Part shown: positions 37,193-57,928 of the stretch, piece after piece
How positions within the stretch are numbered: position 1 is the stretch's first letter
Layout of the letters: each line of letters begins with the position of its first letter
IMG/VR virus record: IMGVR_UViG_3300050821_024094
Span: 10,778-74,777 of that record
Strand: one strand, 5' to 3'
DNA from: a virus
Length of the DNA: 64,000 nt
Position numbers and translations under genes: made by a program
The notes under the pieces: model-generated
The model's input: only the letters and a program-made list of their open reading frames with translations
What the model was told of the DNA's origin: nothing
Databases searched by the model: none

Positions 37193-37260
37193 CGCAGCGA
37201 CAATGACTCTGACGACCAAAAAAAACGACTTCCCTACCACCCACCGCAACGGAGACGACA

Positions 37261-37443
37261 ATGAAGCCCATCACGGTGCGCCTCGCGCACAACCTTCTCC
37301 ATGGCTGCCTGATACTCGACGGCATCCGAATCCGCCGGCTGGCGGAGTTGCTCACGCTCAGCTTGACCGAGCGCAAAGCACTTATCGCCTACCTCGGTCT
37401 CGATGGGATCGAGCGCATCGCTGACACCTTCGAGCTGGCTTGA
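37261..37443 (+). CDS. Hypothetical protein
   Basis: GGAG SD plus CCCTACCAC motif. Confidence 0.6.
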   Translation: MKPITVRLAHNLLHGCLILDGIRIRRLAELLTLSLTERKALIAYLGLDGIERIADTFELA

Positions 37444-37454
37444 GGGAGGCGACG

Positions 37455-37793
37455 ATGAGCGAGCAACAAGAGCCCACGTCATTCACCGTCGCGGTCTATC
37501 TGGTCGACCAAGTCTACGGCGGCCCAGAAGAAGGCGGCTGGTGGTTCCAAGCTGGAACGATCGTCGATCCGGCGTCACTCGACATCCCCTTCGAGATGGC
37601 AGCGCCGCGCGTGTTCAAGGACGAGGACGCGGCGACCGAACACGCCGACGCGGTCAACCTCGCACTCAAGAAGATAAACGCGGGGCGCCCGTCGCTGACC
37701 TCGGTTCTGTCCGAGGGGAGATATTGGGCGCAAGTCCATCCCGGCTTCGTGCCGCCCGACCACTTCCCCGCAGTCACCCCGCACTACGAATAG
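37455..37793 (+). CDS. Hypothetical protein
   Basis: VAVYLVD..YGGPEEGGWW motif; GGAGG SD. Confidence 0.8.
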   Translation: MSEQQEPTSFTVAVYLVDQVYGGPEEGGWWFQAGTIVDPASLDIPFEMAAPRVFKDEDAATEHADAVNLALKKINAGRPSLTSVLSEGRYWAQVHPGFVPPDHFPAVTPHYE

Positions 37794-37830
37794 CAGCCTT
37801 CCCTACCACCCGAGCAACGAGAGAAAAATC

Positions 37831-38208
37831 ATGAACATCAACATTGAAGTCCCGTCACAGCGCATCGCCGACATGATCATCGGTGCGGTCGAAGGCGGCT
37901 CCACCTATTGGGCCAGAAGCCTCGTACTCAAGTCGACGAAGATCGCCGACCGCGAGAGCCCCTGGTACGCCGACCCGCGCCTCTACGAAGACGAGACGCT
38001 GGAGCTCGAACTGATCGAGGACGAGCCGTCCGCGCCGAACCACGACGGCAAGTACACCATCAAATTCGCCGACTTCGCCAAGGGCCTCACCATCATGGCG
38101 CAGAAGCACGCCTGGCACTTCGGCAACATGATCAGCGAGAACGACGACGCGACGACCGCCGACGTGCTCCTGCAATGCATCGCGCTCGGCGAGCTGGTCT
38201 ACGGCTGA
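37831..38208 (+). CDS. Hypothetical protein
   Basis: EGG..YWA...DA..ADV.LQ....GE.VYG motif. Confidence 0.8.
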   Translation: MNINIEVPSQRIADMIIGAVEGGSTYWARSLVLKSTKIADRESPWYADPRLYEDETLELELIEDEPSAPNHDGKYTIKFADFAKGLTIMAQKHAWHFGNMISENDDATTADVLLQCIALGELVYG

Positions 38209-38215
38209 GGGCGCC

Positions 38216-38332
38216 ATGAAAGAGATCATCATTGGCATCCTGCTCACGTGGGGCGTCGTCTCTGCTCTGGCCTGTTGGGCAATGTGCCGCGTCGCCGCGA
38301 TCGCAGACCGACAAATCGAAGAAGGGAATTGA
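38216..38332 (+). CDS. 38-aa single-TM peptide
   Basis: Manual ORF MKEIIIGILLTWGVVSALACWAMC...; fills operon gap. Confidence 0.5.
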   Translation: MKEIIIGILLTWGVVSALACWAMCRVAAIADRQIEEGN

Positions 38333-38334
38333 CC

Positions 38335-38997
38335 ATGGCAGCCGAGAAACGACGCGCCTGCGGCTATCGAAAGGTCGGTGGCCTCTACCTCGTGAGCGAT
38401 GGGCTTGGAGCGTCGTGCTGCAAGCTACCGATCATCCTTAAGACGTGTCCATGCTGCGGCAATGGCGTGAAGCAAGCGCGCGGCTGGACGTGGATTGATC
38501 CGAGTCCGTGGATCAAAGGCGAGTGCAAGTCGTGGAATGGCAAAAAATCGATGGCAGGCGGGTTTTGCCCGCTCGCTGATCCGCGCGTGCTGGGTCAGCG
38601 CGTCGGCCTCCTCTGGATCGGCGAGCAGTTCTACCCGACACCCGAGGCATTCGCCGAGGAAGCGAATGAGATGGGCATCTCGCGCCGCATCACGGCGGTC
38701 CCGCGCGGGTTCAAGGTCGGAGAGCATTGGGTGTTCCTCGCGCATCCGAAGCTGGAGCGCTCGATCAATCCGGACACGAAAGAGGCCGAGTGGGCGGGTG
38801 GCGTGTTCCGCGTCTTCAAGCCCACGCGCATCGAGAAGATCATCACGGAGAGCCAGTCGAAGGACGAGATCGCGATGAAGCGGCTCGAGCTCCAGAAGAT
38901 CACATCCGTCATCGTGCCCGACGACGACAAGGACCACCAAGGGACCGTCTACGACAAAGACGAAGCGGACGGCGACCTATTCGCAGAGGAGAATTGA
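38335..38997 (+). CDS. Cys-rich hypothetical protein
   Basis: RACGYRKVGGLYL, CPCCG, WIGEQFYPTP..F..EA..MG.SRRI. Confidence 0.8.
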   Translation: MAAEKRRACGYRKVGGLYLVSDGLGASCCKLPIILKTCPCCGNGVKQARGWTWIDPSPWIKGECKSWNGKKSMAGGFCPLADPRVLGQRVGLLWIGEQFYPTPEAFAEEANEMGISRRITAVPRGFKVGEHWVFLAHPKLERSINPDTKEAEWAGGVFRVFKPTRIEKIITESQSKDEIAMKRLELQKITSVIVPDDDKDHQGTVYDKDEADGDLFAEEN

Positions 38998-38998
38998 C

Positions 38999-39211
38999 GT
39001 GACACCAGAACAAGTAAAGGGCCTGCGGATGATCTGCGATGGCATCATCGAAGCAATCAAAGCAGGTGGCCCGCTCGGAGCACCAGCAGGTGTGCTCTAT
39101 GCGGCGTTGATGGGCGCGGGCTGCTCACTCGACCAATTCAACCAGATCATGTCTGGCCTGGTGCGAGCGGGCAAAGTGCGCAAGCGCGGCGACTGCTACC
39201 ATGCAGTCTGA
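38999..39211 (+). CDS. Small winged-helix-like protein
   Basis: GAP.GVLYAALM...LDQF..I...L...G.V. Confidence 0.65.
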   Translation: MTPEQVKGLRMICDGIIEAIKAGGPLGAPAGVLYAALMGAGCSLDQFNQIMSGLVRAGKVRKRGDCYHAV

Positions 39212-39251
39212 CCCGCGTGCTATGACTGCCCCTTTCGAGGGGCAGTCATTC

Positions 39252-39479
39252 ATGAGCCAGAACAAGCCGATGACCGGCGCGACGCTTCAGCGTTGGCGCA
39301 AGAAACGCAAACTGTCGGAACGCGGGGCCTGCCTGGTGCTCGGCCTTTCACGCGGCGCGCTTCGCAACTTCGAGGCAGCCGGCGCTCCGCTCTATATTGC
39401 GTTGGCATGTGCCGCACTCGACGCGAACCTCAGCCCTGTCGGCGTTCGCGGCAAACCGAAGTCTCGTACCCTTCGATAA
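39252..39479 (+). CDS. Small XRE-type HTH regulator
   Basis: MT...LQRWRK..KLS...A..LGLSR.....E...P.YIALACAAL. Confidence 0.75.
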   Translation: MSQNKPMTGATLQRWRKKRKLSERGACLVLGLSRGALRNFEAAGAPLYIALACAALDANLSPVGVRGKPKSRTLR

Positions 39480-39534
39480 CCCACTGGAGTAACCGACGAA
39501 AACACAGAACGAGATTGACTGTCTACGCCCGGTG

Positions 39535-39552
39535 TGGTCCATATATGTACCA
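39535..39552 (+). promoter_or_regulatory. Palindromic operator 3
   Basis: TGGTCC-ATATAT-GTACCA; TTGACT 20 bp upstream. Confidence 0.7.
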
Positions 39553-39602
39553 AGCCAAGCCGACGCGGAAAACTGCGCGGCTCCCTACCACGGAGAAGAC
39601 CA

Positions 39603-39992
39603 ATGAACATCCTCACAGGCGAGCGCCTTGCGCGTACCGCCCCGGTGCGCAAGCGCCGACCAGCCATCACCACCACCACTCCCGACGTCACCGAGTACGT
39701 CGTCCATTGGCGAACCTACACCGCGCGACAAGTCTGGCTCGCCGGCGCCGAGGTCTACGCTTGCAAGGACAAGATGCTTCGCGAGATTTACGCCGGCGCG
39801 GTGAACACCGTGCAGCGCGTCATATCCTACAACGCGGCCGAAGGATGGGCGCATGACGTGAGCGCAGACGTCGCCCAGGAGATCGCCGACCGCTTCAACT
39901 CGACGGGCGACTCCATCGAACGGTCGCTCATCAATTTCCTCCACGACCACCTCGGCGTCGAGTCGACGCTTGAGCTCAACACGGAGGAGTGA
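39603..39992 (+). CDS. Hypothetical protein
   Basis: GGAG SD plus motif; RVI.YN..EGW..DVS.D.A pattern. Confidence 0.75.
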   Translation: MNILTGERLARTAPVRKRRPAITTTTPDVTEYVVHWRTYTARQVWLAGAEVYACKDKMLREIYAGAVNTVQRVISYNAAEGWAHDVSADVAQEIADRFNSTGDSIERSLINFLHDHLGVESTLELNTEE

Positions 39993-39995
39993 GCG

Positions 39996-40235
39996 ATGGC
40001 CAAGAAGCTTTTCATCGCAGCCTTCTTCGTGGACGCAGAGCGGTTCGACGAGATGACCGGCGCCGGCTCGCCCCACAAGGACGACGTCATGGCCCTGCTT
40101 GAGAACCAGCTCGGCATGGACGGAGACGTCACAGACTTCGCCGTTTGGGATGGCACCGACAACACGGTCGTCCTGCTCAAAGAGATTGCCGACGCGATCA
40201 ATGACTCGCGCCGTCACCGTTTCGAGGAGCACTGA
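39996..40235 (+). CDS. Hypothetical acidic protein
   Basis: GGAG SD; in operon. Confidence 0.65.
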   Translation: MAKKLFIAAFFVDAERFDEMTGAGSPHKDDVMALLENQLGMDGDVTDFAVWDGTDNTVVLLKEIADAINDSRRHRFEEH

Positions 40236-40333
40236 CCATGCCTTGGGTCGCGCTCTTCCTCGGTTTCTGGGCCGGCGACACGGTTGCATAAATAAGAACT
40301 TCCCTACCACCGATAAGCAACGAGGAATTGAGA

Positions 40334-40507
40334 ATGAGTATCGGCGAAGAACAGCGACTCCGATCGGAGATCGCATTCATCGAACAGCGTTACGACGGCC
40401 ACTACCCGAAGTCGATCTGGGCAGTCCTCGAAATCTACCAGCGCGAGCTGGCCGAATGCCTCGCCAAGAAGGACGCCGCTCCGAGCACTGGAGCTGCACA
40501 ACAATAA
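40334..40507 (+). CDS. Hypothetical 57-aa protein
   Basis: Manual ORF MSIGEEQRLRSEIAFIEQRY...; GAGG SD plus motif. Confidence 0.6.
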   Translation: MSIGEEQRLRSEIAFIEQRYDGHYPKSIWAVLEIYQRELAECLAKKDAAPSTGAAQQ

Positions 40508-40572
40508 GCCACTGAGAACCGAGGAGCCGGATCAACCGGCCCTCTCCATCCCTACCACCAGGATCAATCCCC

Positions 40573-42117
40573 ATGCTCGATGTCACCACCGGCGCGCTCG
40601 CGCGCTGCAGCGAAGACGTCACTCAAGACCGGCCGACCGACACCGGTATTGTCCCGCGCGACACGGTCGAGACCATCGTGCGCAACCGCGACCGCGCATT
40701 GGAGCTCTACTGCCTCGCCCACCAGGCCCTGAACACCGCGAACGAAGCTGTCGCCGGAGCGGCAGGAGCAACACGTGACCTCTGCCCAGGAGAGAACCGT
40801 TACAACCACCATCTCAGCAGCGAGAAGGCCCATTGGCTCAAGCCAGGCCGAGTGCCGTCGCGCGAAGACTACATGGCGACCGCGCGCAAGATCACGGACA
40901 CAGATGTCTGGTCGCACCTGATCGCGATCACCGACCTTGAGAAGCTCATGGATCGCAAGGCGAAGGACGAGTTCTCGCGGCAGCTTCAAGACGATCCGCC
41001 TGAGGTGACGGTCGACAACGTGTTCGCGACACTTGAGCACTTCATGGCGGACGCCGGCACCATCTTCCGGCGCGGCATCGCCAATTGCTTCTCCAGCCTC
41101 GATCGCCGGTTCAAGTCACACGACGGTTTCAAGATCGGGAGCCGCGTGATCCTCACCCACATGTTCGATGGGTTTGGCCACATGAACTATCACCGCAACA
41201 CCGAGGCGACGCTCATCGACATCGACCGCACGTTCCGCCTGCTCGACGGAAAGAAGGACTGCGACGTCTACACCGGCATCGTCGGCGCGCTGCGCAACGA
41301 CCGCACGGGTTGGGGCGCTCGGCAGACCGAGACGCACTCTGACTACTTCAAGGTCGTCGGCTACATGAACGGCAACGCGCACATTTGGTTCAAGCGCGAC
41401 GACCTGCTCGAGAAGGTCAACAAGATGCTCGCCGAATACTACGGCGAAACAATCGGCGACGGAAACGACCGCGACGATGGCGGACTGTTCACACCCAAGA
41501 CGACGCTAGCGAAGCACTACGGCTTCTACCCGACGCCGGATGAAGCATCGAAGACGATCATCGACATGGCCGGGCTCTATCGAGAGAAGGGCATGCCTGC
41601 GCTCCGCATCCTCGAACCGTCCGCCGGCACCGGCAACCTCGCGCGGCGTTGCGTGCGAGGATACGGCGAAGGGCACGAGAGCGTGTCGTATCACGCTCGC
41701 GAGCGCATCGCATCCGAGCCCAACCTGGTCGACTGTGTCGAGGTGCAGGCCAATCTCGCCAGCGACCTCAAGGCCGAGGGCATTTATCGGAAGGTCTACG
41801 CCCAGGACTTCCTCACGCTGCAACCCGTCGGCCTCTACGACCGCGTGGTGATGAACCCGCCGTTCGATCGGGAGCGCGACATTGATCACGTCATGCACGC
41901 GCTCAACTTCCTCGCCGACGACGGCGTGTTGATCGCGATTATGTCGGCAGGCACCGAGTTCCGCGAGACGCGCAAGGCAACCGCCTTCCGCGCGTTGATG
42001 AAAAAAATGAACGCCCACTGGCGCGATCTGCCGGCCGGATCGTTCTCCTCCGTCGGCACGAACTGCAACACGATCGTGCTGAAGGTCAGCAAGAACGGCC
42101 GGCACTTCTATCACTGA
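40573..42117 (+). CDS. DUF4942-type DNA N6-adenine methyltransferase
   Basis: FYPTP, LEPSAGTGNL, VVMNPPF; N-terminal helical domain. Confidence 0.88.
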   Translation: MLDVTTGALARCSEDVTQDRPTDTGIVPRDTVETIVRNRDRALELYCLAHQALNTANEAVAGAAGATRDLCPGENRYNHHLSSEKAHWLKPGRVPSREDYMATARKITDTDVWSHLIAITDLEKLMDRKAKDEFSRQLQDDPPEVTVDNVFATLEHFMADAGTIFRRGIANCFSSLDRRFKSHDGFKIGSRVILTHMFDGFGHMNYHRNTEATLIDIDRTFRLLDGKKDCDVYTGIVGALRNDRTGWGARQTETHSDYFKVVGYMNGNAHIWFKRDDLLEKVNKMLAEYYGETIGDGNDRDDGGLFTPKTTLAKHYGFYPTPDEASKTIIDMAGLYREKGMPALRILEPSAGTGNLARRCVRGYGEGHESVSYHARERIASEPNLVDCVEVQANLASDLKAEGIYRKVYAQDFLTLQPVGLYDRVVMNPPFDRERDIDHVMHALNFLADDGVLIAIMSAGTEFRETRKATAFRALMKKMNAHWRDLPAGSFSSVGTNCNTIVLKVSKNGRHFYH

Positions 42118-42157
42118 CTCAAGATCTAACCATCCCTACCACCAGGAGCAGACAACG

Positions 42158-42502
42158 ATGGCACTCCCAGCGACATACCGACCACGCGAAGGCGACATCC
42201 TGATCCTGCACGCGAGGGTCAAGCACAGCTTCACAGGCAGCGACGACGGGCTGTACGTCGAGATCGAAGGTCACTACAGCACGCCGTGCCTTCCACCGGA
42301 GAGTTTCGCAGGTGTCCATCGCCTCGGCTTCGAGGTTGGTGACTACGTTTGGCACGTCGACCAGCAAGCACACGCCACCGTGCTCGCGATCAACGGCAAC
42401 CAAGCTTGGATCAAGTGGCAGATCGGCGGGTCCACCATGGTCATTGCCATGACTGACCTAGAGCGCAGCGCGCGCCCGGAGCAAGCGGAGGCCGCGGAAT
42501 GA
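42158..42502 (+). CDS. Hypothetical protein (SH3/KOW-like)
   Basis: AGGAG SD plus motif; FEVGDYV...ATVLAI. Confidence 0.65.
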   Translation: MALPATYRPREGDILILHARVKHSFTGSDDGLYVEIEGHYSTPCLPPESFAGVHRLGFEVGDYVWHVDQQAHATVLAINGNQAWIKWQIGGSTMVIAMTDLERSARPEQAEAAE

Positions 42503-43347
42503 ACACGCTCAAGACGACGCTGCTCCTGACCGCAATGATGGCAGCGTTCCTCGCCATCGGTAATTTGTTTGCCGACACCGCCGGCGCGGTGGTCGGCTTC
42601 ATCGCCGCCATCCTGTTCGGTGCGCACACCTACTGGTACGGGCTTCAGAACGCCGTGCGCACGCATCAAGCCAAGCCCGCCGACTTCGCCCGCAAGCGAG
42701 AGCGACAGTTGATCGAGCTGGTCAACGAGCTCGCGAGAAACGCAGGCATCCCGACGCCTCGCGTCTTCGTGTTCGACAGCGCCCAGCCGAATGCGTTTGC
42801 CGCCGGGCGCGGACCGAGTCATTCCGCGATCATCGTCTCGACCGGGCTACTGGCCTGCCTCGATTGGAACGAAATCGCCGGCGTGATCGCGCACGAGCAG
42901 GCGCATATCAAGAACCGCGACGCGCTCACGATGACGGTTGCCTCTGGCCTGGCCGGCGTGATCGCCTTCCTTGCGGGGACCATCGCCATGCTCGGGCTGG
43001 CCAACCGCCGGGGCGGCGGGATCGGTGCGATCGTGTTCGGCGCCATCATGGCGCTTGGGGCGCTTGTGCTCCAAGCCATGCTCGGCCGGTCACGAGAGTA
43101 TGTCGCCGACCGTGATGGCGCAGCGATCTGCGGTCACCCACTTTGGATCGCCAGGGCATTGCGCCGCATGAGCGGAGGAACGAAGCAGGTCAATCATGCT
43201 GCGGAGAGCAACCCGGCTCTATCGGCCCTCTACTTCGTGAACCCTCTGTCCGGGGGTTGGGTGGCGAGGATGTTCTCGACTCACCCGCCCGTTGAGAAGA
43301 GAATCAGACGACTGGAGCGAATGACCGAACACGGAGGGACTAAGTGA
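42499..43347 (+). CDS. htpX: Membrane zinc metalloprotease HtpX (M48)
   Basis: QPNAFAAGR, VIAHEQAHIKNRD, SREYVAD, FSTHPP.EKRI. Confidence 0.92.
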   Translation: MNTLKTTLLLTAMMAAFLAIGNLFADTAGAVVGFIAAILFGAHTYWYGLQNAVRTHQAKPADFARKRERQLIELVNELARNAGIPTPRVFVFDSAQPNAFAAGRGPSHSAIIVSTGLLACLDWNEIAGVIAHEQAHIKNRDALTMTVASGLAGVIAFLAGTIAMLGLANRRGGGIGAIVFGAIMALGALVLQAMLGRSREYVADRDGAAICGHPLWIARALRRMSGGTKQVNHAAESNPALSALYFVNPLSGGWVARMFSTHPPVEKRIRRLERMTEHGGTK

Positions 43348-43553
43348 AGCTCGCAGACGTTGACGTCCAAGACCTCATCACAGCGCTCCGCGATGAACGC
43401 AGTGTCGGTATCAGCGCAGCGCGGGAAGAACATCGGAAGCCGACGGACGCAGAAGAGATCACTTTCTGCGTCTTAAGGGCCCTAGAGTGCGCACTAGCAG
43501 CGGCGATTTCGCGGCGAGAGACAGAAGTTTACGACCCTACGTTGGGGGCTTGA
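43344..43553 (+). CDS. Hypothetical protein
   Basis: GGAGG SD; last gene of plus-strand block. Confidence 0.5.
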   Translation: MKLADVDVQDLITALRDERSVGISAAREEHRKPTDAEEITFCVLRALECALAAAISRRETEVYDPTLGA

Positions 43554-43590
43554 AAAAGAACCGGCCAGAACCCGAGGGCTCTGGCCGGTC
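43553..43590 (-). terminator. Intrinsic terminator of candidate sRNA
   Basis: GACCGGCCAGAGCCC-TC-GGGTTCTGGCCGGTT-CTTTTT on minus strand. Confidence 0.85.
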
Positions 43591-43659
43591 TAGTTGGCAA
43601 ATGCTTCCCTACCACAGGAGCAACGAAGACGTGTCACAGGGACACGCGCCCTTCGTAGC
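43553..43659 (-). ncRNA. Candidate trans-acting sRNA antisense to the phage RBS motif
   Basis: Upstream TTGCGA-N17-CATGTT; 5' hairpin; seed CTCCTGTGGTAGGGAAG; 3' terminator with T run. Confidence 0.7.
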
Positions 43660-43663
43660 CCCG

Positions 43664-43693
43664 AACATGGATCAGGAAGCGGTGAATCGCAAG
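43664..43693 (-). promoter_or_regulatory. Sigma70-like promoter of candidate sRNA
   Basis: (C)TTGCGA at 43692-43687, 17-bp spacer, CATGTT at 43669-43664. Confidence 0.55.
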
Positions 43694-44080
43694 ATGGCGC
43701 CTGCCCTAAATGTTAACGCCAGTGCCGCGACCAGGTCCGAGTGCAGAGCTTGCATTCGACCCGTTCAATCAGAACCTCCCGGCTAGTGCTTAGGCCGATG
43801 ACGTCCGTCTCCGCCCCAAGCGGGCAGATGCAAGGGACGGCGCGGGCCTCGGAGACTTTGGCGGCCTTATCAACCGGCCGCTCGGCGGTGAGAACATCAC
43901 ATTCGGAGATCATGGTTTGGCCTGGAGGTTGCCCAGGCACAGATGCGCGTCCTCGCGCGCGCACGCGCGAGAGATGACCGATCGGAATGTGTCTGGAAAT
44001 GCGAAACGCAAACGGGCCCCACCTGGGGGCCCGCGCAAGTTCCGCCGAATCTATTTATTTGTTAGCACGGTTGAGCAAGG

Positions 44081-44692
44081 CTAGCCAAGTGACATGAGAC
44101 GCGCTTCGAGCGCCGCCGCCTCCAGGCCGTGACTTGCGAGAGCCGCATCGATCTGATCGTCAGCAGGCATCACCGCTTTGAGCTTGTGCGCGATCGCCAC
44201 CATCTGGAGATCGCGCCGCTCATAGACCGAGTTCCGGTGAAGGCCGAGTGAGCGAGCAATTTGCTGCCCCTCCTTCCCGGCCGCCATGCCGCAAATGATC
44301 TGATAGTCGCGGCGTCGGTTTTTCCCGACCAGGAGCTTGGGGAAGACGTCGAAGATGACGTGCATGCGCTGCACGTCCCTCGGCGTCGGCTGAGCGGTCC
44401 GGAGCAGAGAATCATTGCTCTGGTGCCCTGCCTCGATCGCGGCGAGCTCGGTGCGATAGGCTTCCATTCGCTCCTCTTGCGTGCGCGTAAATTCCGGCCA
44501 GAGAGACCGCATGGAGTAGAGCAATGCGGCCTCCGGATCGGGGAGCTTCTTCATCGTCGTCATCGCCCGCTGGAGGACGTAGAAGACCAGATCGGTGGGT
44601 CTCACCCTTTCCTTGCCCTCGGCGACGAGAGCTTGGAGAGCATCCCTGAAAGCCAGGTGCAGGATCTCGGGGTAGTCCTTCTCCCCTGCCAT
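44081..44692 (-). CDS. Putative late transcription regulator (Q-position, C-terminal HTH)
   Basis: Last gene of replication operon; QQIARSLGLHRNSVYER HTH. Confidence 0.65.
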   Translation of the reverse strand: MAGEKDYPEILHLAFRDALQALVAEGKERVRPTDLVFYVLQRAMTTMKKLPDPEAALLYSMRSLWPEFTRTQEERMEAYRTELAAIEAGHQSNDSLLRTAQPTPRDVQRMHVIFDVFPKLLVGKNRRRDYQIICGMAAGKEGQQIARSLGLHRNSVYERRDLQMVAIAHKLKAVMPADDQIDAALASHGLEAAALEARLMSLG

Positions 44693-45015
44693 CACACCAC
44701 CAGATCGTCTTCGGCCGGCAACGATAGCTCGAGCCGCGCACTGGAGCGCTGCACAAGGTAGATCGCCTCCATCAGGTCGGGAGAGCGATCCTGGATCATG
44801 AAAACCTCGCCGCGTTCGTGCGCCAGACACACTTCGACCGCGAGAGCCTGGAGCACGATGCGCTGGTCGCCGGGCAGGTTGGAGAACTCGAGACTCTTGT
44901 CGCCGGCGAGGTTGCCTTGGTGGTAGATCGCGTAATCGCCGGCCTTCGCCATACGCAAGAAGACCTTGAACTCGTCCGCAGTGGTGACCGTGGTGGGTTT
45001 TTTCTTGGTGCTCAT
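44692..45015 (-). CDS. Hypothetical protein
   Basis: A..GD..IYH.GNLA.D pattern; GGAG SD plus motif. Confidence 0.7.
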   Translation of the reverse strand: MSTKKKPTTVTTADEFKVFLRMAKAGDYAIYHQGNLAGDKSLEFSNLPGDQRIVLQALAVEVCLAHERGEVFMIQDRSPDLMEAIYLVQRSSARLELSLPAEDDLVV

Positions 45016-45068
45016 TGGTCGATGTCTCCGTGGTGGTAGGGATTGTGTTGTGTGTTTTTTGTGAGAGC

Positions 45069-45527
45069 TCAGAAGGGGATTTCGTCGTCGAGCTCGTCGC
45101 GACGAGACGTCTGCGGACCATCTGCCGGCGGAGGAGTGCCGGCGTCCGCCGGGCGATTGCCCTTGTTTTGGTCCCAGGCTTTGCAGCGGATGATTTGCAG
45201 CTCGGATTTGAACGGCCGCAGCACGACCTCGGTCGCGTAGCGTTTGCCACCACCCTGGTCTTCCCAAGAGCGGGTCTCGAGCTGGCCCACGATCATGATC
45301 TGATCGCCCTTGGCGAGGTACTGTTCGATGACCTTCACCAGGCCATCGGCCCAGACGACGACGCGGTGCCACTGCGTCTTCTCCTTGCGCTCGCCCGTGC
45401 TCTTGTCCTTCCAGCTTTCCGAGGTGGCGATCGAGAGCGTCGCGAGCTTCGCACCGTCGGCGAGAGCTTTGACTTCGGGGTCCTGGCCGAGATTGCCGAG
45501 CAGGATGACTTTGTTCATTGCAGCCAT
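45069..45527 (-). CDS. ssb: Single-stranded DNA-binding protein
   Basis: NKVILLGNLGQDPE, TQWHRVV, LDDEIPF tail. Confidence 0.97.
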   Translation of the reverse strand: MAAMNKVILLGNLGQDPEVKALADGAKLATLSIATSESWKDKSTGERKEKTQWHRVVVWADGLVKVIEQYLAKGDQIMIVGQLETRSWEDQGGGKRYATEVVLRPFKSELQIIRCKAWDQNKGNRPADAGTPPPADGPQTSRRDELDDEIPF

Positions 45528-45542
45528 GTGGTAGGTCTCCGT

Positions 45543-47289: not shown

Positions 47290-47297
47290 GCGGCGCC

Positions 47298-49059: not shown

Positions 49060-49065
49060 GAGCGC

Positions 49066-50275: not shown

Positions 50276-50278
50276 GAC

Positions 50279-50863: not shown

Positions 50864-51344
50864 AGCGCTGCGCTCCAGCACACAGCGGCTTCGGTTGAGG
50901 CGAGCCAGTGCGGTTGACGTGGGACTGGATGCCGCGATGAACGCCGGAATGATCGAGGAGATTGAGGAAGCCCGCGATGTGAGCCAGGCTCCAGCCGGTG
51001 TCGCGACGGATCAGGTACATAAGCTCCTGACGCGCGGTCGTGACCGGGAGACGCTTGCTATAGCCCTTGATGACGTGTTCCGGGATGGCGTGGCGCGTGC
51101 AGACGTCCTCCGTATGGTGGCGAGCGATCGCCGGCCAATGATGCCGGATACTCGGGGAGAGCGTCGCGGGAAGCGGAGTGATGGCGCCTTTGACTGGCGC
51201 TGTCGCCAGTTCCCGGCTCGCCGGCGGGGCCTGAGTGTCTTTCTTCGCAGTGAAGGCGGAACCAGCCGCCGCCATACGGGCTTTGACATCTCGGTAGCCG
51301 CGCACGAGATCGCGGCCCGAGCTGGGCTCGGTGTTCAAGTTCAT
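50856..51344 (-). CDS. Protein with DnaA C-terminal-like HTH
   Basis: ARQELMYLIR..T.WSL..IA......DHS.V..G. Confidence 0.75.
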   Translation of the reverse strand: MNLNTEPSSGRDLVRGYRDVKARMAAAGSAFTAKKDTQAPPASRELATAPVKGAITPLPATLSPSIRHHWPAIARHHTEDVCTRHAIPEHVIKGYSKRLPVTTARQELMYLIRRDTGWSLAHIAGFLNLLDHSGVHRGIQSHVNRTGSPQPKPLCAGAQRYA

Positions 51345-51427
51345 GTGGTAGGGTCTCTGTTAGATTTTATTTGGAGGGCGGCGTGGCCGGTTTATCCGAC
51401 CACGCCGTAGTTCGAAGGGCTCGTCGT

Positions 51428-51835
51428 TTAGGCGGTCGAGACTTTTTCATCGAGCGCCCGCGCATGACGGGAGCACTCGGAACGATACGCGGCGCGCAGA
51501 TTCTCGTAGACGTCCCAGTAGATTCCTTTGGGACGGCGATACTCAAGATTCCACAGCAACGTCGGTGGCAATCGGTGCCGCACGGACAACCGGCGCATGG
51601 CGGTCTCCTTGTCGCCAGGGAAACGGGTTTCCATCTTCACCATCTCCTGGGACATGCGGACCGCCTCGTCCATGTAGCCGGAGGGGTTGCTGATCCCACC
51701 TTGCTTCAACAGCAAAGACTCTTTGCTGCATTGCAAAAACTCTTGGGGGATACTCTTCATCGTTGAGGTTGGGATTTGAAGGAGGCGCCACGATGAGGGA
51801 ACGATGGGCGCGGCCAGTAGATCGGTGCCGCTCAT
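51428..51835 (-). CDS. Putative CII-position regulator
   Basis: PGD.E.AMRRL.....P..LWNL.YRRPK pattern; second gene of lytic operon. Confidence 0.6.
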   Translation of the reverse strand: MSGTDLLAAPIVPSSWRLLQIPTSTMKSIPQEFLQCSKESLLLKQGGISNPSGYMDEAVRMSQEMVKMETRFPGDKETAMRRLSVRHRLPPTLLWNLEYRRPKGIYWDVYENLRAAYRSECSRHARALDEKVSTA

Positions 51836-52164
51836 GCTGCAACTCCCGCGCCGGCATCACGTGCGGACGCGCGCGTAGCACGGTCCGTGCCAACGCCAGC
51901 ACGACGAATTTCCGCCTGCTGGATGGCAGTCATGTAGGTTTCGAGGATCGCGTCTTGTTCGGCCCGCTCGGAAGCATCCTTACGGCGAAACGCGATGACA
52001 GACTTGAGCGCTTTGACGTCGTATCCGGCGCCCTTGGCTTCCTGATAGATGTCGCGCTTGTCGTCGTTGAGGTCTTTGATTTCCGCTTCGAGGTGCTCGA
52101 CCCGCTCTACGAGGGAAAGCAATTGTTCTCCCGCGGCTGAACTGGAACCATTTCCGTTTGACAT
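51832..52164 (-). CDS. GapR/DUF2312 (UPF0335) nucleoid-associated protein homologue
   Basis: QL...VERVE.LE.E...L..D..DIY.EAKG.GYD.KAL...I..R..D..ER.EQ.AILETY. Confidence 0.9.
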   Translation of the reverse strand: MSNGNGSSSAAGEQLLSLVERVEHLEAEIKDLNDDKRDIYQEAKGAGYDVKALKSVIAFRRKDASERAEQDAILETYMTAIQQAEIRRAGVGTDRATRASARDAGAGVAA

Positions 52165-52192
52165 GGTTGCCTCTCCGAACTCAGGGACGCGG

Positions 52193-52221
52193 TGTATGCG
52201 GTTATTTTTCCGCTTTGTCAA
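52193..52221 (-). promoter_or_regulatory. PR-like promoter with operator GCGGTTATTTTTCCGC (52198-52213)
   Basis: TTGACA-N17-CATACA on minus strand; operator lies in the spacer. Confidence 0.75.
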
Positions 52222-52330
52222 CCGGAAAGGTCTTTTAACCGCACCAATGGGGTTTTTTCCATGGGTGACAAGTGTTAGACATGCGCCGGAAGGGGTCCCG
52301 GTCTGAAATTTTGGGGGCGCGGATTTAGTC

Positions 52331-53098
52331 ATGACCAGCGACAAGAACACGCCATATGCGATGCAACTGGCGGATATCCTTGCGAGAATCGAATCGCGAC
52401 AGAAGGTGGTCGGACTTAGTGACCACGCCGCCAGTCTCGAGGCAGGGCTGTCTCGTGACGCAATCCGAAGCATGCGCCGCGGCTTGAAGGACGGCAAACA
52501 AGAGGGGGTGCAGTCCAGAACTATCCGCGCGCTCGCGGCACCCCTGCACACGACACCTGAATGGTTGATGACTGGCGAAGGGCCGGAGTCTCTCGACGCC
52601 GACGAGATTGCACCGCGTGCGCCCTTCCTCGAGGTGGTGGGAGAGATAGCCGCTGGCGTGTGGATTGCGGCAGACAAGCACTTGGTCGACCCGCCGCGCC
52701 TGCCTTATTTGGTCCCTCCAGACCCCATGTATTCGCAGTCAGCGCAATTTGCGCTGATCATGCGCGGCTCATCGTTCAACCGATACGCCGCAGATGGCGA
52801 CGCCGTCATTTGCATCGACGTGCGGCGGGCGAACCTGCGACTTCAGAACAACGATTTGGTTTTGGCCTGGAGCGTTCAAGTCGGCGGCTCCCTGAGAGAA
52901 ATCACGGCGCGTCGACTGCATCTGCAGCGAAACGGTACTGGCGAGCTCACCTATGAATCGACGGATGATCGCTTCGCGTCGACGACCGAGCGCGTCTCAC
53001 TGCGAGACGAAGGCCGTGTGACTAAAGTCGGAGCAGCGGAGATTTCAGTCACTGCCGTCGTGTGTGGCATCTATCGCTCCGTGCCACGCGGAAATTAG
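52331..53098 (+). CDS. cI: CI-like repressor (HTH plus S24 domain)
   Basis: HTH ...LA..L.TTPEWL.TGEG; VVGEIAAG.W; MRGSSFN...DGD. Confidence 0.88.
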   Translation: MTSDKNTPYAMQLADILARIESRQKVVGLSDHAASLEAGLSRDAIRSMRRGLKDGKQEGVQSRTIRALAAPLHTTPEWLMTGEGPESLDADEIAPRAPFLEVVGEIAAGVWIAADKHLVDPPRLPYLVPPDPMYSQSAQFALIMRGSSFNRYAADGDAVICIDVRRANLRLQNNDLVLAWSVQVGGSLREITARRLHLQRNGTGELTYESTDDRFASTTERVSLRDEGRVTKVGAAEISVTAVVCGIYRSVPRGN

Positions 53099-53209
53099 GC
53101 GAGAATTAGTTCGTATACGTACAAATTTTAGTTGCGGACCACGAGGGCAACCGGATAAGTCTCCGCTGTTTACGCGAATATAATACCGCCTGAAAGCTGG
53201 GGGGCGTCG

Positions 53210-53512
53210 ATGTGGTCTCGTGTCGGCATGCGCGTTGTGTTTGCGCAATCGTTCGATCGTTTCCCTTGGTACCATATCCAAACCGGCGAACGCGGGACTG
53301 TTGTCAATATCTGGCCAGGCCACACTCGCGTTAAAATTCTCATGGACCGGCCGCACGCAGGTCTCGCGCACTACCAAAATCACCTCTGGCTCACTAGGGT
53401 CGAAGCGTTCCACATGATCGGTCCTCTCCTGTTTGCCGGCTCGCAGTACCTTTGCAGCAACGAATGTGTGGAGGCGTGCTTATCCACCCTGCCAAGTTTG
53501 TTTTGTGGGTGA
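53210..53512 (+). CDS. Hypothetical protein in rex position
   Basis: Between cI and PL-like promoter; SH3-like VGMRVV...GERGTVV. Confidence 0.45.
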   Translation: MWSRVGMRVVFAQSFDRFPWYHIQTGERGTVVNIWPGHTRVKILMDRPHAGLAHYQNHLWLTRVEAFHMIGPLLFAGSQYLCSNECVEACLSTLPSLFCG

Positions 53513-53528
53513 TTAATCCGCTTTTTTA

Positions 53529-53557
53529 TTGACGCGGATATTTTTCCGCTTTAGCGT
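53529..53557 (+). promoter_or_regulatory. PL-like promoter with operator GCGGATATTTTTCCGC (53534-53549)
   Basis: TTGACG-N17-TAGCGT; operator differs by 1 nt from the PR operator. Confidence 0.75.
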
Positions 53558-53585
53558 CGATGCAACCTCAAAAGAGGAATGCATT

Positions 53586-53969
53586 GTGCTCCCTACCACA
53601 CTCTCTCCCTATACGAGCGGCCCAGGTCGCCCGGCCTATCAACGGCGCGTGCTCGCCAAGGCGAACGGCGCGCTCGTCATCACCTTCGTCCTGAGCAAAG
53701 ACGTAGCAGCCTGCATCGGCCTCAAGCCGGGCGGCCGTTTCTGTGTGGAGCTCGAGCAGACGCGGATGGTGCTGCGCGCGACGCACGCCGACTTCGGCGG
53801 CAAGGCCACTGCTTTCGGGAACCAGGTCAGCGTCAACATCCGAGGCGCGTTTCTCGCGCGCGACGTTCCCGCTGAGCCCGTTGAGCTCTCCCATCAAATT
53901 CGAGACGGCGAGCTGATCGTCGATCTCTCCCAGCTCCCTACCACGGAGAATCAACGGAGAAACGCATGA
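53586..53969 (+). CDS. Hypothetical protein, first gene of PL operon (possibly AbrB-like)
   Basis: GAGGA SD, GTG start; LSKDVA..IGLKPG.R. Confidence 0.65.
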   Translation: MLPTTLSPYTSGPGRPAYQRRVLAKANGALVITFVLSKDVAACIGLKPGGRFCVELEQTRMVLRATHADFGGKATAFGNQVSVNIRGAFLARDVPAEPVELSHQIRDGELIVDLSQLPTTENQRRNA

Positions 53970-54694
53970 CACAGAGACCAGACGACCTGCACAGGCAGGT
54001 GGAGGCCGCCAAGCAATTGCGGCTCCAGATCGCACTACTCGTTGCCGGCGAGAGCGCCGAAGCGATCGGGCAAGAGCTGAGCGAGGATGATCGCCGCGCG
54101 ATACAGGACACGTTCGAGGGTGAGACGAGCCTCGATGTTGAGCTCGAACGCGCGATCGCGGCCGAAGACGAAGACCTGATCCTGATCGAGGGCATCAGGA
54201 AGCGCGAGGACGAGCTGAGCGCCCGTCGCAAGCGGTACGAGAAACGCAAGGAGGCGCGTCGCGGCCTGATTGAGCAGGCGATGACGGTCGCTGGTTGGAA
54301 GAAGAAGGAGACCGCGCTCGGCACACTCTCGCTCGGCAGGGGATCGGCGAAGGTCGCGACTGACGACGAGAGCAAAATCCCCGTCGACTACTGGAAGCGA
54401 GCGGAGCCGACCCTCGACAAGACCACGCTCGGCGCAGCGCTACGCGAGCACAAGAAGGCGGTCGAGGAAGCGCTCAAGATCAGGGATGCGTATTCGCGCA
54501 GCGAAGCCCTGCTCCGGCTCTCGAACAAGCTGCCCCAGGCGGAGACGGTCAACGCCCGGATCATCGATGCTGTGATGCTCAACGACCCGGACGCGCAGTG
54601 CGAAGCGCTCGCAGCGATCCTCGCGAGCACGTCTCCCATCCCAGGCTGCCATCTCGAAATCGGCGGTCCGTCCCTCACCATCACCAGGAAGTGA
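53966..54694 (+). CDS. Siphovirus Gp157-like protein
   Basis: DT.EGET, coiled coil, DESKIP..YW...PTLDK..L...L, IPG.HL. Confidence 0.8.
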   Translation: MTQRPDDLHRQVEAAKQLRLQIALLVAGESAEAIGQELSEDDRRAIQDTFEGETSLDVELERAIAAEDEDLILIEGIRKREDELSARRKRYEKRKEARRGLIEQAMTVAGWKKKETALGTLSLGRGSAKVATDDESKIPVDYWKRAEPTLDKTTLGAALREHKKAVEEALKIRDAYSRSEALLRLSNKLPQAETVNARIIDAVMLNDPDAQCEALAAILASTSPIPGCHLEIGGPSLTITRK

Positions 54695-54697
54695 GCC

Positions 54698-55720
54698 ATG
54701 AACGAGATTGCACGTTTCAGCCACGGTGCGGCCGTCGCGCTTCCAAGCATCGCCTGGAGCTCCCGCCAGCTTGACACCATCAAGCGCACAGTAGCGAAGG
54801 ACACCAACAACGACGAGTTCGACCTGTTCATCGAATACTGCAAGGTGAAGGGACTCGATCCGTTCTCGCGACAGGCGATCGCCGTCGTCTTCAACAAGGA
54901 CAAGCCGGCGAAACGTCAGATGACCATCATCACGACGCAGGACGGTCTGCGCGTGATGGCCTCGCGCTGCGGCGACTACCGGCCGGAGGAGACCGAGGCG
55001 GTCTACGAGTACGACGAGAACCTCAAGAGCCCGGTCAATCCGCTCGGCATCGTGAAGGCGACGGTGACGCTGTGGAAGCAGGACTCGAAGTCGGACAAGT
55101 GGTGGCCGGTCAACGGCACCGCCTACTGGGACGAGTTCGCACCGATCAAGACGGACGATCGCGTCTTCGAGTGGGTCCCCACCGGAGAGGTCTACGAAGA
55201 CACCGGCAGGCCGAAGAAGCGCAAGCAAATCAAGGAAGGCTGCAAGGTCGAGGACTTCCAGAAGCTCGATGACAGCGGGCTCTGGGCGAAGATGGGCCGC
55301 AACCAGATCGCCAAGTGCGCCCGGATGCAGGGACTTCGCGGCGGTTGGCCAGAGACGTTCTCCGGTGTCTACGCCGAGGAAGAGATGGACCGGGCGCGCG
55401 TTGCCGATCTGACCGCTTCCGAGATGGTCGACATGGAGCGCGAGGAGCGCAGGGCGAAAGCCATCTCGATGTCAACCGACGAGTACCCATGGGTCACGAA
55501 CGAGGGCGAGCTGATCTTCGTCCCCGCCGGCAAGTTCTCCGACCACGTCTGCAAGGTCCTGCGCGAGGGCAAGTCCGCCGAGGAGATCGACACCATCCTG
55601 GTCCGCAACCGAGAAGGCATGGCGCGGTTCTGGAAGGTCCACAAAGACGAGGCGCTGATGCTCCGCAAGGAAGTAGACGGCGTCATCAAGTCCGTCCAGC
55701 AAACGGAAAAAGTCGCGTGA
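54698..55720 (+). CDS. bet: Phage recombinase Bet/RecT family
   Basis: EF.LF...C...GLDPF.RQ, DGLR..A.R, W.KM.R.QIAKCA..Q.LR..WP...G.Y..EEM. Confidence 0.9.
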   Translation: MNEIARFSHGAAVALPSIAWSSRQLDTIKRTVAKDTNNDEFDLFIEYCKVKGLDPFSRQAIAVVFNKDKPAKRQMTIITTQDGLRVMASRCGDYRPEETEAVYEYDENLKSPVNPLGIVKATVTLWKQDSKSDKWWPVNGTAYWDEFAPIKTDDRVFEWVPTGEVYEDTGRPKKRKQIKEGCKVEDFQKLDDSGLWAKMGRNQIAKCARMQGLRGGWPETFSGVYAEEEMDRARVADLTASEMVDMEREERRAKAISMSTDEYPWVTNEGELIFVPAGKFSDHVCKVLREGKSAEEIDTILVRNREGMARFWKVHKDEALMLRKEVDGVIKSVQQTEKVA

Positions 55721-55872
55721 GCCTGGCCCTCCTCCCGGCTTATGCGCACGGGGCGGCTCAGTGGAGTCGCCCCGTCATCCGCATCCTGATCGCGGCGCCT
55801 CTGCTGACCGTCGTGCTCACGACGCTCGCAGCCTGCGCCATCGGCATCCTCGCACCGAAGGTCTTCCGATGA
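55717..55872 (+). CDS. Small membrane protein
   Basis: Overlaps both neighbours by 4 nt; TM segment. Confidence 0.5.
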   Translation: MSLALLPAYAHGAAQWSRPVIRILIAAPLLTVVLTTLAACAIGILAPKVFR

Positions 55873-56375
55873 AGGTCGATGTCGAGACACCCAAGCTGCT
55901 GTTGCTGCACACGCCGCAGCACGCGCTGGTCCCTGCCACTCAGTACGACCTGGAGAAGCTGTGCAGGTACGGCGTCGGCCACGTCATCGAGGCGAAGCTG
56001 TGGCAGGAACGGTCGATCAAGCAACACCGACTCTATTGGGTCGCGCTGGGCATCGTTGCAGAGAACAACGAGGTGTGGACGAGAGCGGAGGTGGTCCACC
56101 GGAATATCAAAAAGGCGCTCGGCTATGTCGAGACCTACTTCGATTTCTTCGGCGTCGAGTGTGAGTACGTCCAATCCACCGGCTTCAACGCGATGGATCA
56201 GGGCGCCTTCAAAGAATACTTCGACCAGGCGATGGAGCTCATCCGGCTGCATTTCAAGGTCGATATCGACGAGTTGCTGAAAGAGAGCCGGCAAAGACTG
56301 GCTCCGCAGCGCCACTTCCCTACCACGCACCGGAGCAACCATGAACATCGTCGACTTCCTGCGCAGCAACATTAG
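55869..56375 (+). CDS. DUF1367-like protein
   Basis: RS.KQHR.YW...K..LG...S..F..MDQ..F..YF. Confidence 0.7.
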   Translation: MKVDVETPKLLLLHTPQHALVPATQYDLEKLCRYGVGHVIEAKLWQERSIKQHRLYWVALGIVAENNEVWTRAEVVHRNIKKALGYVETYFDFFGVECEYVQSTGFNAMDQGAFKEYFDQAMELIRLHFKVDIDELLKESRQRLAPQRHFPTTHRSNHEHRRLPAQQH

Positions 56376-56637
56376 GACCCGGAAGGCCGCCCGTAAGCGG
56401 TACATCCATCTCGTCTCGACGTCCAAGGTGATCGGCGGTGTGCCTCACTTCCGCAACGCAGCGGCAAGAGCGCGAGCCAAGGGTATCCACGAGAACGCCG
56501 CGAAGGGCGATCTGGTGATGATCGAGGTCAAGCGCTCGGTCTTCGTCGACGGCTCGAAGCACCCGCCATCCATCCTGCGCAAGGTCACCGCAGCGAAGGG
56601 TGTCGGCCGCCCTCCCCTCCAGCAAGAAGCGGAGTGA
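56341..56637 (+). CDS. Hypothetical basic protein
   Basis: GGAG SD plus motif. Confidence 0.65.
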   Translation: MNIVDFLRSNIRTRKAARKRYIHLVSTSKVIGGVPHFRNAAARARAKGIHENAAKGDLVMIEVKRSVFVDGSKHPPSILRKVTAAKGVGRPPLQQEAE

Positions 56638-56831
56638 GCGCCATGAGCAACGCCGATGCATGGCCTGACATGCCCGAGTTCCTGCGCCGCCCAGCGGTGA
56701 CGCCCGAACAACGCCGGCGCCTCGACCGCATGAGGGTCAACGACGTGGAGCGCACGATCAAGAACCCGCCGAAGCGAGCGAAACGCAAGACCAAGCTGCT
56801 CGGCTTCTCGCCGGTGAAGAGGGGCAAATGA
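56634..56831 (+). CDS. Hypothetical protein
   Basis: PDMPEFLRR motif; coupled. Confidence 0.55.
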   Translation: MSAMSNADAWPDMPEFLRRPAVTPEQRRRLDRMRVNDVERTIKNPPKRAKRKTKLLGFSPVKRGK

Positions 56832-57325
56832 TCCTGCCCGCCGGGACGTTCAAAGTCAGCGACTACCGCAAGGCGGTCCCCGTCTACGTCAAGCTCGCGG
56901 TGCTGATCCGCCAGGAGTGCAAGGACACGGGCGGCGAACGGTTTGAGGACGACGTGGAGCTGGAGTTCGATCACTCGCCGGCCCTGGTCAATCGCGACTA
57001 CGACACCGAGGCCGGCGATTTCATCCCACCGCAGAACGATCCGAAGTTCATCGTCGCGAGCCGCAAGGCCGAACACCTGGAGAAGACGACGGGCCGAAAG
57101 GCGGGAGCAGAGAAGACAGTGACCACGCGCGGGAGTGATGTGGGCGAAGCCGCCCGCACGCGCGGGATCAAGCGAACCCAGGCCGCGCACCAAGCGCGGA
57201 TGGAGGCGAAGCAGATCGGCGCCGAGGTTCCGGTCGAACCAATCCGCAAGCGAACGCGGAAGATAGCGAGCCGACCATTCTCGAAAGAGCGGCGGCCATT
57301 CCCTACCAGCCAACGGAGAGCATGA
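56828..57325 (+). CDS. HNH-like nuclease
   Basis: EFDH.PAL...ND......H..KT. Confidence 0.65.
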   Translation: MILPAGTFKVSDYRKAVPVYVKLAVLIRQECKDTGGERFEDDVELEFDHSPALVNRDYDTEAGDFIPPQNDPKFIVASRKAEHLEKTTGRKAGAEKTVTTRGSDVGEAARTRGIKRTQAAHQARMEAKQIGAEVPVEPIRKRTRKIASRPFSKERRPFPTSQRRA

Positions 57326-57816
57326 TGAGCGACCTGAAGGAATCCATTGATGCCGCACGCGAGACGTTGCTCCGTGTCGGAGGTCCCACCGTCAACGTCG
57401 GCGGCCGCGTCGAGGGGATCGTCGCCCACATCCGCAAAGAGCTCGACGAGATCCGAGTCGATCCGAGCGACGTCATCGAGTACGCCGACGTCTTCATTCT
57501 CGCGATCGACGCGGCTTGGCGCGGCGGGGCATCGAACGACGAGATCGTGGAGATGTTCACCCAGGTCGACCAGTTCGACGACGTCCAGCCGGTCACTGAT
57601 CTGGAAGAAGCGCTCGCCCTGCTGTGTCACTTCCCTCGCACGCTCCACGCTTGCTGTGTCGTGATGGCCTGCGCGAAGCGGATGGCAGCGGATGCCGGGT
57701 TCGACGAGGCCGCCTTCCGGGATGCCCTCGATCGCAAGATCGCGATCGTCGGGACGCGCAAGTATCCACCGATGGTCGAGGGCCGCCCCTTCGAGCATAT
57801 CCGCGAACCTACCTAG
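57322..57816 (+). CDS. DUF550-like dNTP pyrophosphohydrolase
   Basis: G...HIRKELDEI...P.D..EYADV.ILA.D...R.G; K......R.YP.....P.EHIR. Confidence 0.7.
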   Translation: MMSDLKESIDAARETLLRVGGPTVNVGGRVEGIVAHIRKELDEIRVDPSDVIEYADVFILAIDAAWRGGASNDEIVEMFTQVDQFDDVQPVTDLEEALALLCHFPRTLHACCVVMACAKRMAADAGFDEAAFRDALDRKIAIVGTRKYPPMVEGRPFEHIREPT

Positions 57817-57928
57817 TATTTATGTGAGTGGCCGCCATTTTTACTTGACTGGAAGCGCCGGCCTGTAAGTATCCATCCGCCAACAAAAAGTAACGACGTC
57901 CCTACCACAAAGATCAACGGAGAATCCA

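Follow-up and report, generated by a model that had tools for sequence, protein, structure and literature searches.

Could one small RNA (sRNA) of a phage address the ribosome-binding sites (RBSs) of many dispersed genes, and would it do so through one block of pairing or through two? The question is raised by a 64,000-nt stretch of DNA (the window) covering bases 10778-74777 of one soil-metagenome virus record of 74.8 kb (IMG/VR record IMGVR_UViG_3300050821_024094, hereafter G000). In the window, about 18 genes with early, replication and accessory functions have a short tag, (CTT)CCCTACCAC, in their leaders. The single antisense copy of the tag lies in a gap without coding sequence, flanked by a 5' hairpin and, on the minus strand, a strong terminator, where a candidate sRNA would present a seed complementary to the tag (Table 1). 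The preliminary description of the locus proposed that pairing nucleated by this seed extends into a second segment of the sRNA and covers the Shine-Dalgarno sequence (SD). This second segment comprises the anti-SD CUCCU (43616-43620) and, within 43621-43632, a linker UUG and a second pyrimidine tract, GUCUUCG. Its complementarity to the stretch between tag and start codon exceeds chance, with p-values from ~0.03 to <0.001 across tests, and we regard two-part pairing as a plausible reading, partly supported by sequence and predicted energies.

For the comparison of duplex energies, the length-matched region from the end of the tag to ATG+6 was used, with motif-less genes possessing an SD as controls; gene starts were taken from our own crude gene calling. 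The 17-nt segment gave -14.1 kcal/mol with 16 targets and -11.3 kcal/mol with 68 motif-less SD regions (resampling p ~2e-4; p=0.15 if lengths are not matched), and the distal 12 nt alone gave -9.2 versus -7.4 kcal/mol (p ~0.002). Shuffling of the sRNA segment, the control proposed in the preliminary description, yielded p<0.001 for the 17 nt and 0.007 for the distal 12 nt. That description had staked its reading on the second-segment matches being better than those of motif-less SD regions; this holds against all controls taken together, but the energy excess of the distal 12 nt is not significant against early genes only. The real segment also pairs with the target set better (-14.1) than the antisense of any single target leader (best -13.3; 0/16) or of any control (0/68).

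Similar results were obtained with uninterrupted complementarity. The longest complementary run averages 8.3 nt in targets, compared with 6.9 nt in genes of the same early operons that lack the motif; runs of at least 9 nt occur in 53% of the former and 16% of the latter, and runs of at least 8 nt displaced by no more than 2 nt from the sRNA register in 40% versus 9% (p<=0.001 in the run tests). About half of the targets carry the signal. All eight second-segment matches quoted in the preliminary description were recovered, and the part of the segment that is matched varies with leader layout. Leaders in which the SD abuts the tag (39582, 40549, 42133 and 60050) match the first tract, CUCCU beside the seed. 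Those with the SD 8-11 nt downstream (37229, 53935 and 57899) match the second tract (UCUUCG, in the 3' arm of hairpin 1) almost collinearly, and the leaders at 37798, 40299 and 56315 match the linker with GAGCAAC(GA). The match in the ParB-like leader (31709) requires a 7-nt loop on the sRNA side.

When leaders were cofolded with the sRNA core and the cost of hairpin opening was included, 17 tagged leaders had a mean interaction energy (ddG) of -17.7, compared with -4.4 for 99 other starts; the best of these controls reached -11.3, and all 17 targets were separated from them. In all 17 leaders the predicted hybrids cover 7-18 nt of the -18..+3 region. The proposed coverage of the SD region is thus borne out by every predicted hybrid, whereas the proposed extension into the 3' arm of hairpin 1 is seen in part of them: at least 6 nt of the distal tract are paired in only 7/17. 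Replacement of the region behind a real tag by a foreign motif-less SD region weakened the mean from -18.3 to -13.6, a loss of 4.7 kcal/mol (p<1e-4) that is concentrated in about seven leaders. For the leaders at 37798 (ddG -27.5) and 37229 (ddG -24.5, with 10 distal pairs), none of 68 chimeras equalled the real sequence.

Table 1. Positions in the window of the candidate sRNA, its parts and the tagged leaders; the last row gives the reverse copy of the start-associated sequence (SAS) of phage Anaya
Feature	Coordinates	Strand	Details
Candidate trans-acting sRNA, ~105 nt	43553..43660	-	Outer stem GGC/GCC, hairpin 1, hairpin 2 presenting GUGGUA, terminator, U tail
Promoter-like TTGCGA-N17-CATGTT	43664..43692	-	6-8 nt 5' of outer stem; weak -10; read from sequence
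Hairpin 1	43623..43656	-	-14.9 kcal/mol (fold); 3' arm supplies the distal portion of the second segment
Second segment	43616..43632	-	5'-ACGUCUUCGUUGCUCCU-3', 17 nt, 5' of seed; complementarity tests
Seed	43604..43615	-	GUGGUAGGGAAG; GUGGUA is the loop of hairpin 2
Hairpin 2	43602-43622	-	GCUCCU-GUGGUA-GGGAAGC (fold)
Intrinsic terminator	43553..43590	-	14-bp stem, then UUCUUUUU; terminator scan
Leader of 60-aa open reading frame (ORF)	37229..37263	+	Tag 37229-37240; ccacc-GCAACGGAGACG 37246-37257 (12 nt, one G:U); ATG 37261
Leader of 125-aa ORF	37798..37833	+	Tag 37798-37809; cc-GAGCAACGAG 37812-37821 (10 nt); ATG 37831
Leader of 57-aa ORF	40299..40336	+	Tag 40299-40310; cgata-AGCAACGAGGA 40316-40326 (11 nt, G:U); ATG 40334
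Leader of 114-aa ORF	42131..42160	+	Tag 42133-42142; c-AGGAGCAG 42144-42151 (8 nt); ATG 42158
Leader of Gp157/Gam-like gene	53933..53968	+	Tag 53935-53944, adjoining first GGAG; CAACGGAGA 53952-53960 (9 nt); ATG 53966
Leader of 98-aa ORF	56315..56343	+	Tag 56315-56326; gcacc-GGAGCAAC 56332-56339 (8 nt); ATG 56341
Leader of DnaN sliding-clamp gene	57897..57931	+	Tag 57899-57908; CAACGGAGA 57915-57923 (9 nt); ATG 57929
Leader of ParB-like gene	31707..31734	+	Tag variant CACCTACCAC 31707-31716; ACGGAGACG 31717-31725 (9 nt); ATG 31732
Leader of 90-aa ORF	26572..26600	-	Tag 26589-26600; ACGGAGAC 26581-26588; ATG 26574-26572
Leader of 107-aa ORF (44692-45015)	45013..45042	-	Tag 45033-45042; ACGGAGAC 45024-45031
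Target with SD directly 3' of tag	39582..39605	+	CCACGGAG; only seed and anti-SD pair
Leader of DUF4942/methyltransferase gene	40549..40575	+	Only seed and anti-SD pair
Leader of dATP/dGTP pyrophosphohydrolase-like gene	57300..57324	+	Tag variant ending CCAG, then ccAACGGAGAgcATG
Leader of 102-aa ORF	60050..60073	+	SD directly 3' of tag
SSB gene start	45525..45537	-	Tag between SD and ATG (acggagaCCTACCACATG)
Start of gene with DnaA-C-like helix-turn-helix	51342..51354	-	Tag abuts ATG, no evident SD (ACCCTACCACATG)
Anaya reverse SAS copy	L442 39871-39883 = JF704106 59870-59882	+	385-bp gap between gp96 and gp97

The tag itself is strongly overrepresented: CTTCCCTACCAC with up to two mismatches has 17 matches in the window versus 2.4 expected, and the whole record, including the part outside the window, contains about 20 copies of TCCCTACCAC with up to one mismatch, two of them at positions 1314 and 3266 of G000, which precede the window and whose genes were left unannotated. 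Nearly all copies are in sense orientation, 0-25 nt 5' of a start codon. Most sit immediately 5' of the SD, which in this phage follows the tag at 0-11 nt; two lie between SD and ATG (the SSB and DnaA-C-like genes), and one lies just past a GTG start (53586-53599, SD AAGAGGAA), in the first codons of a 127-aa ORF and still inside the ribosome footprint. No tagged start was seen among the other, presumably structural, minus-strand genes of the left part of the window. The tagged 107-aa gene has a GC content at third codon positions (GC3) of 0.81 and is coupled by an ATGA overlap to a DUF6362-like gene (44081-44695). We also considered other roles for the tag. A promoter is unlikely, as the tag recurs between cistrons, 0-20 nt from start codons. 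An enhancer pairing with 16S rRNA is unlikely because the Mesorhizobium 16S rRNA contains no 8-nt complement of the tag, and the best duplex was equalled by 6% of shuffles. Literature searches with the tag sequence returned nothing relevant, and no paper on the motif was found.

At the antisense copy, the plus strand reads CTTCCCTACCAC-AG-GAGCAACGAAGACG at 43604-43631, precisely the full complement of the sRNA given in the preliminary description. It is plausible that the minus strand gives rise to a structured RNA ending in a terminator. The predicted fold of the 108-nt stretch has -55.5 kcal/mol (z = -5.6 versus shuffles), and the RNA may be transcribed as a unit of its own, with the strong terminator and a weak promoter-like element, TTGCGA-N17-CATGTT; a consensus scan for sigma-70 promoters at the locus found no strong site. 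As in base-pairing trans-acting sRNAs, a conserved seed, predicted to be accessible, is complementary to several RBSs. The minus-strand operon upstream has its own terminator (44012-44034). No coding signature was detected in the six frames of 43600-43960, where GC3 is 0.58-0.66 compared with a gene median of 0.79. A 51-aa plus-strand ORF 3' of the tag (43631-43786) was rejected as a gene, having a GC3 of 0.62. No family of Rfam, C4 (RF01695) and IsrB (RF01386) included, matches the sRNA region (cmscan of 43400-43800, E<=10), which gave only chance-level Vault and UPD-PK rows, and at the Rfam gathering score the window contains only a tRNA.

Relatives of this arrangement were sought by pattern scans for recurring YCCTACCAC-SD-ATG in viral contigs; 14-mer scans of viral and bacterial collections listed mostly chance matches, and loci were retained only where several tags occurred. 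At least six other proviruses share the layout of a strand-biased tagged regulon with one or two antisense copies. Tag counts per strand in whole records are 11/1 in G001, 13/1 in G003, 10/0 in G004, 7/0 in G005 and 10/0 in G007, compared with 0-3 for a reversed-pattern control. One or two copies not followed by a gene start occur in each of G001, G002, G004, G005 and G007, and likewise in loci L267, L295 and L289. On the opposite strand these orphan copies show a 5' hairpin, UCCU-GUGGUA-GGGA and a terminal hairpin, and by our own count a U-rich tail follows on the anti-tag strand in 7/10 homologous loci. In four, a TTGC-type -35 box, a 17-nt spacer and a -10-like box were recognized by eye at an equal distance. 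Hairpin 2 is predicted by RNAalifold in nine homologues, with four invariant pairs, among them the closing U.G, which on the opposite strand would become C.A, and two outer pairs changed on both sides. The homologues diverge too far in their flanks to be aligned there. An Rfam scan of seven homologous loci (E<=0.1) found nothing at the sRNA sites. Near, not at, one sRNA-like locus (L233 2328-2402, minus strand) there is a sub-threshold match to BjrC68, an sRNA of Bradyrhizobiaceae (26.5 bits versus a gathering score of 39, E 0.01).

Several of these relatives have features of their own. A close relative of G001, with both RNA loci, is present in Mesorhizobium sp. WSM3862: G001 (L195 16262-16372, L196 1683-1795) and the WSM3862 element (L344 1367, 6208) possess two different sRNA-like loci each with the same seed, and one of the two types lacks hairpin 2, its seed directly preceding the terminator. 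ParB-like genes are tagged in G000, G001, G002 and L344. Palindromes TGTAACC-N4-GGTTACA are located 25-35 nt before several tagged leaders of G001 and G004 (L196, L271); in view of these operator-type sequences, some tags probably lie at the very 5' end of operator-controlled transcripts. In G008 (L295 8309-8364) a long hairpin (CCCGCTGG...CCAGCGGG) has the tag in its loop, and a second tag, abutting ATG (GGAGTCCCTACCACATG), follows 55 nt later. A bacterial contig (L429 7031-7446) contains four tandem units of ~130 bp, each with GTCCCTACCACAGGAACTTGGAG.

The anti-SD beside the seed is the only part of the second segment conserved across the proviruses. The matrices of own versus foreign targets (with shuffles redrawn per target in this family comparison, so that its p-values are rough) single out two phages: the segment of G000 gave -14.3 on its own targets and -6.0 to -12.3 on foreign sets, and that of G007 gave -12.9 versus -9.0 to -11.6, G007 being the only other phage with extra complementarity. 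The G007 sRNA reads GGUUCCU, and its targets use AGGAAC(C) as the SD, which makes it a second case of a matched second segment. In these two cases the 5' flank of the RNA appears, from the sequences, to follow the leader layout of its own phage, which fits RNA-RNA pairing.

A number of observations weigh against two-part pairing. In the energy ladder (targets -14.3, early motif-less genes -12.0, late ones -10.6), early motif-less genes are intermediate, so the signal stems in part from an RBS context common to early genes in general, for example AACGGAG; against these genes only, the whole segment retains p=0.03 and the distal 12 nt have p=0.18. Distal pairing has to open the hairpin 1 of -14.9 kcal/mol, and the -10 box of the sRNA is poor. 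The homologues in G004, G005, G007 and loci L267, L295 and L289 were found with a pattern already containing UCCUGUGGUAGGGA, so the invariance of UCCUGUGGUAGGGA among them is partly a result of how they were selected. In four of the six other proviruses (G001, G002, G004 and G005) the tag abuts GGAG and nothing past a 3-5-nt anti-SD matches. The leaders at 37798 and 40299 have AGCAACGAG in common, and much of the match is explained by common descent, given how alike the tagged leaders are. Finally, the G:U-tolerant variation that the preliminary description had advanced in favor of RNA-RNA pairing turned out to be a weak argument: only one position varies, in one direction, and the A-to-G change itself makes the SD and is expected without any sRNA.

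The last points but one lead to another explanation, namely that a real sRNA acts by its seed and the adjacent anti-SD only, the distal match being a by-product inherited from an inverted copy of a leader, and the leaders being paralogous RBS modules. It draws on the shared AGCAACGAG, on the absence of the distal match from most relatives, on the non-significant distal excess over early genes and on the plus strand at 43604-43633, which is itself leader-like (tag, AGGAG, 10 nt, GTG). We nonetheless consider it rather unlikely, given that the real segment outperforms every single-leader antisense, that long near-collinear runs are far commoner than in neighboring early genes, that the targets with a displaced SD are those matching the distal tract, and that G007 provides an independent matched case. 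Descent from a copied leader is inseparable from selection for pairing, and the two are not exclusive.

The intermediate position of early motif-less genes, together with the invariance of the tag across diverse proviruses, as if it were read by a third party, would also suit a protein or ribosome site (a RegA-like repressor site, an enhancer or a processing signal), with the antisense copies not being functional RNAs and the match reflecting a shared early-gene RBS context. We judge this improbable: antisense copies recur at one or two per genome, with hairpins and U-tailed terminators on the anti-tag strand, the gap lacks a coding signature and 16S rRNA lacks a tag complement. Moreover, the location of the tag before the SD, between SD and ATG, or past the start suits occlusion rather than an enhancer of fixed geometry. 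Another possibility, that the RNA pairs as proposed but activates or stabilizes the tagged mRNAs, for example by opening a UCC...GGA leader hairpin or by blocking an RNase at short 5' leaders, appears very improbable. Such a hairpin of 3-4 bp, read from the sequence, can be formed by the tag and the adjoining GGA and would hide the SD, and in G001 and G004 the tag is at or near predicted 5' ends, just past operator-bearing promoters; however, in the predicted hybrids the SD itself is paired, often together with sequence up to the start codon, and this would normally block initiation.

We return to two-part pairing, and favor, with modest confidence, a model in which the minus-strand sRNA would jointly repress the approximately 18 tagged genes by pairing in two parts over their RBSs. 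The RNA (43553-43660) would present GUGGUA in its hairpin loop, and the loop would meet the tag in a kissing contact. We infer that pairing could then extend 3' into GGGAAG, next 5' into the anti-SD CUCCU and, in this phage, on through the linker into the 3' arm of hairpin 1 (UUG-GUCUUCG). With two anti-SD-like tracts ~10 nt apart, the SD could be covered whether it abuts the tag or lies 5-11 nt downstream. The predicted outcome is occlusion of the RBS and joint translational repression of the tagged genes, which may serve as an immunity function or a timing brake.

Among known systems, the functional counterpart is RegA of phage T4, a protein that acts at the initiation regions of many early mRNAs to repress their translation and reads loosely conserved sites, whereas the factor proposed here is an RNA reading an exact tag of 10-12 nt. 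Closest in mechanism is the c4 antisense RNA of P1 and P7, whose pairing is in two parts. This phage-encoded, trans-acting RNA uses short stretches presented in loops to pair around an RBS and block translation (PMC12197685). It differs in having one target operon, icd-ant, from whose transcript it is processed, compared with about 18 dispersed tagged genes here, and the Rfam C4 model finds no sequence or structure match in the sRNA of this phage.

Closest in layout, as an analogy that does not imply membership, is the SAS found in mycobacteriophages of Cluster K. This short asymmetric motif occupies or adjoins the RBSs of 10-20 non-structural genes, keeps to a single orientation and is conserved between related phages (Pope et al. 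2011, PMC3203893); the tag is likewise confined to non-structural genes, in one orientation and conserved among related phages. In contrast, the SAS consensus GGGATAGGAGCCC (up to two mismatches) lies 3-7 bp before start codons, contains the SD and belongs to phages of a different host phylum, while the tag is separate from the SD at a variable distance and does not conform to that consensus. A phage or host RNA or protein was suggested for the SAS (PMC3203893), and a 2025 survey still calls its role unverified; no antisense RNA is known to have been proposed or shown for it. Each K1 genome has one SAS copy in the opposite orientation. We found that the copy in Anaya forms the 10-nt loop CCUCCUAUCC of a GCGCGG/CCGCGC hairpin within a longer stem (z = -4.0, plus strand). 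This is the layout of hairpin 2, so Cluster K SAS may also be targets of antisense RNAs.

The window (GC ~62%) belongs to a temperate-type soil phage, probably of a Hyphomicrobiales host. Family searches of its proteins identified a primase/helicase, SSB, RecT, a Gp157/Gam-like protein, the DnaN clamp, an exonuclease, a ParB-like protein, a methyltransferase and an M48 peptidase. Closest to the primase are metagenome proteins (60-65% identical); more distant relatives include prophage proteins of Bradyrhizobium, Enterovirga and Methylobacterium, which makes a Hyphomicrobiales host likely, and the best relative among GenBank phages is only 40% identical (Bradyrhizobium phage BDU-MI-1). The DNA of 43400-44100 had no matches in GenBank phages and PLSDB plasmids, and a single-protein search for related viral loci found none. 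The tag is absent from 80 primase-related viral loci, whose common 9-mers represent iterons, tandem repeats or simply strong RBSs. One of these untagged phages (L167 2787-9254) has a different start-associated repeat, a long start region (CACTGAAGGAGGGTGAGTGATG) reused at seven gene starts. Comparison of four sets of soil-metagenome contigs yielded an identical contig over 43034-43968, with no informative variants in the sRNA and the leaders.

Should the RNA be produced and behave as predicted, translation of most of the early and replication genes in the phage would be under the control of one small gene, an RNA counterpart of protein repressors such as RegA, and the second segment would be a way for it to reach the RBS when tag and SD are not adjacent. 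Tentatively, one may further envisage a family of provirus-encoded master antisense RNAs in Hyphomicrobiales phages, in which an invariant kissing loop GUGGUA and the adjoining anti-SD would silence an early regulon marked CCCUACCAC, and each phage would tune the 5' flank to the SD spacing or SD variant of its own leaders, with two anti-SD registers in the present case. As the tag is common to unrelated proviruses, incoming phages that carry it would also be hit by a resident RNA, suggesting an RNA-based cross-immunity able to act between unrelated phages. The same logic may explain SAS, and thus offers a testable explanation for the start-associated motifs seen in other phage groups since 2011.

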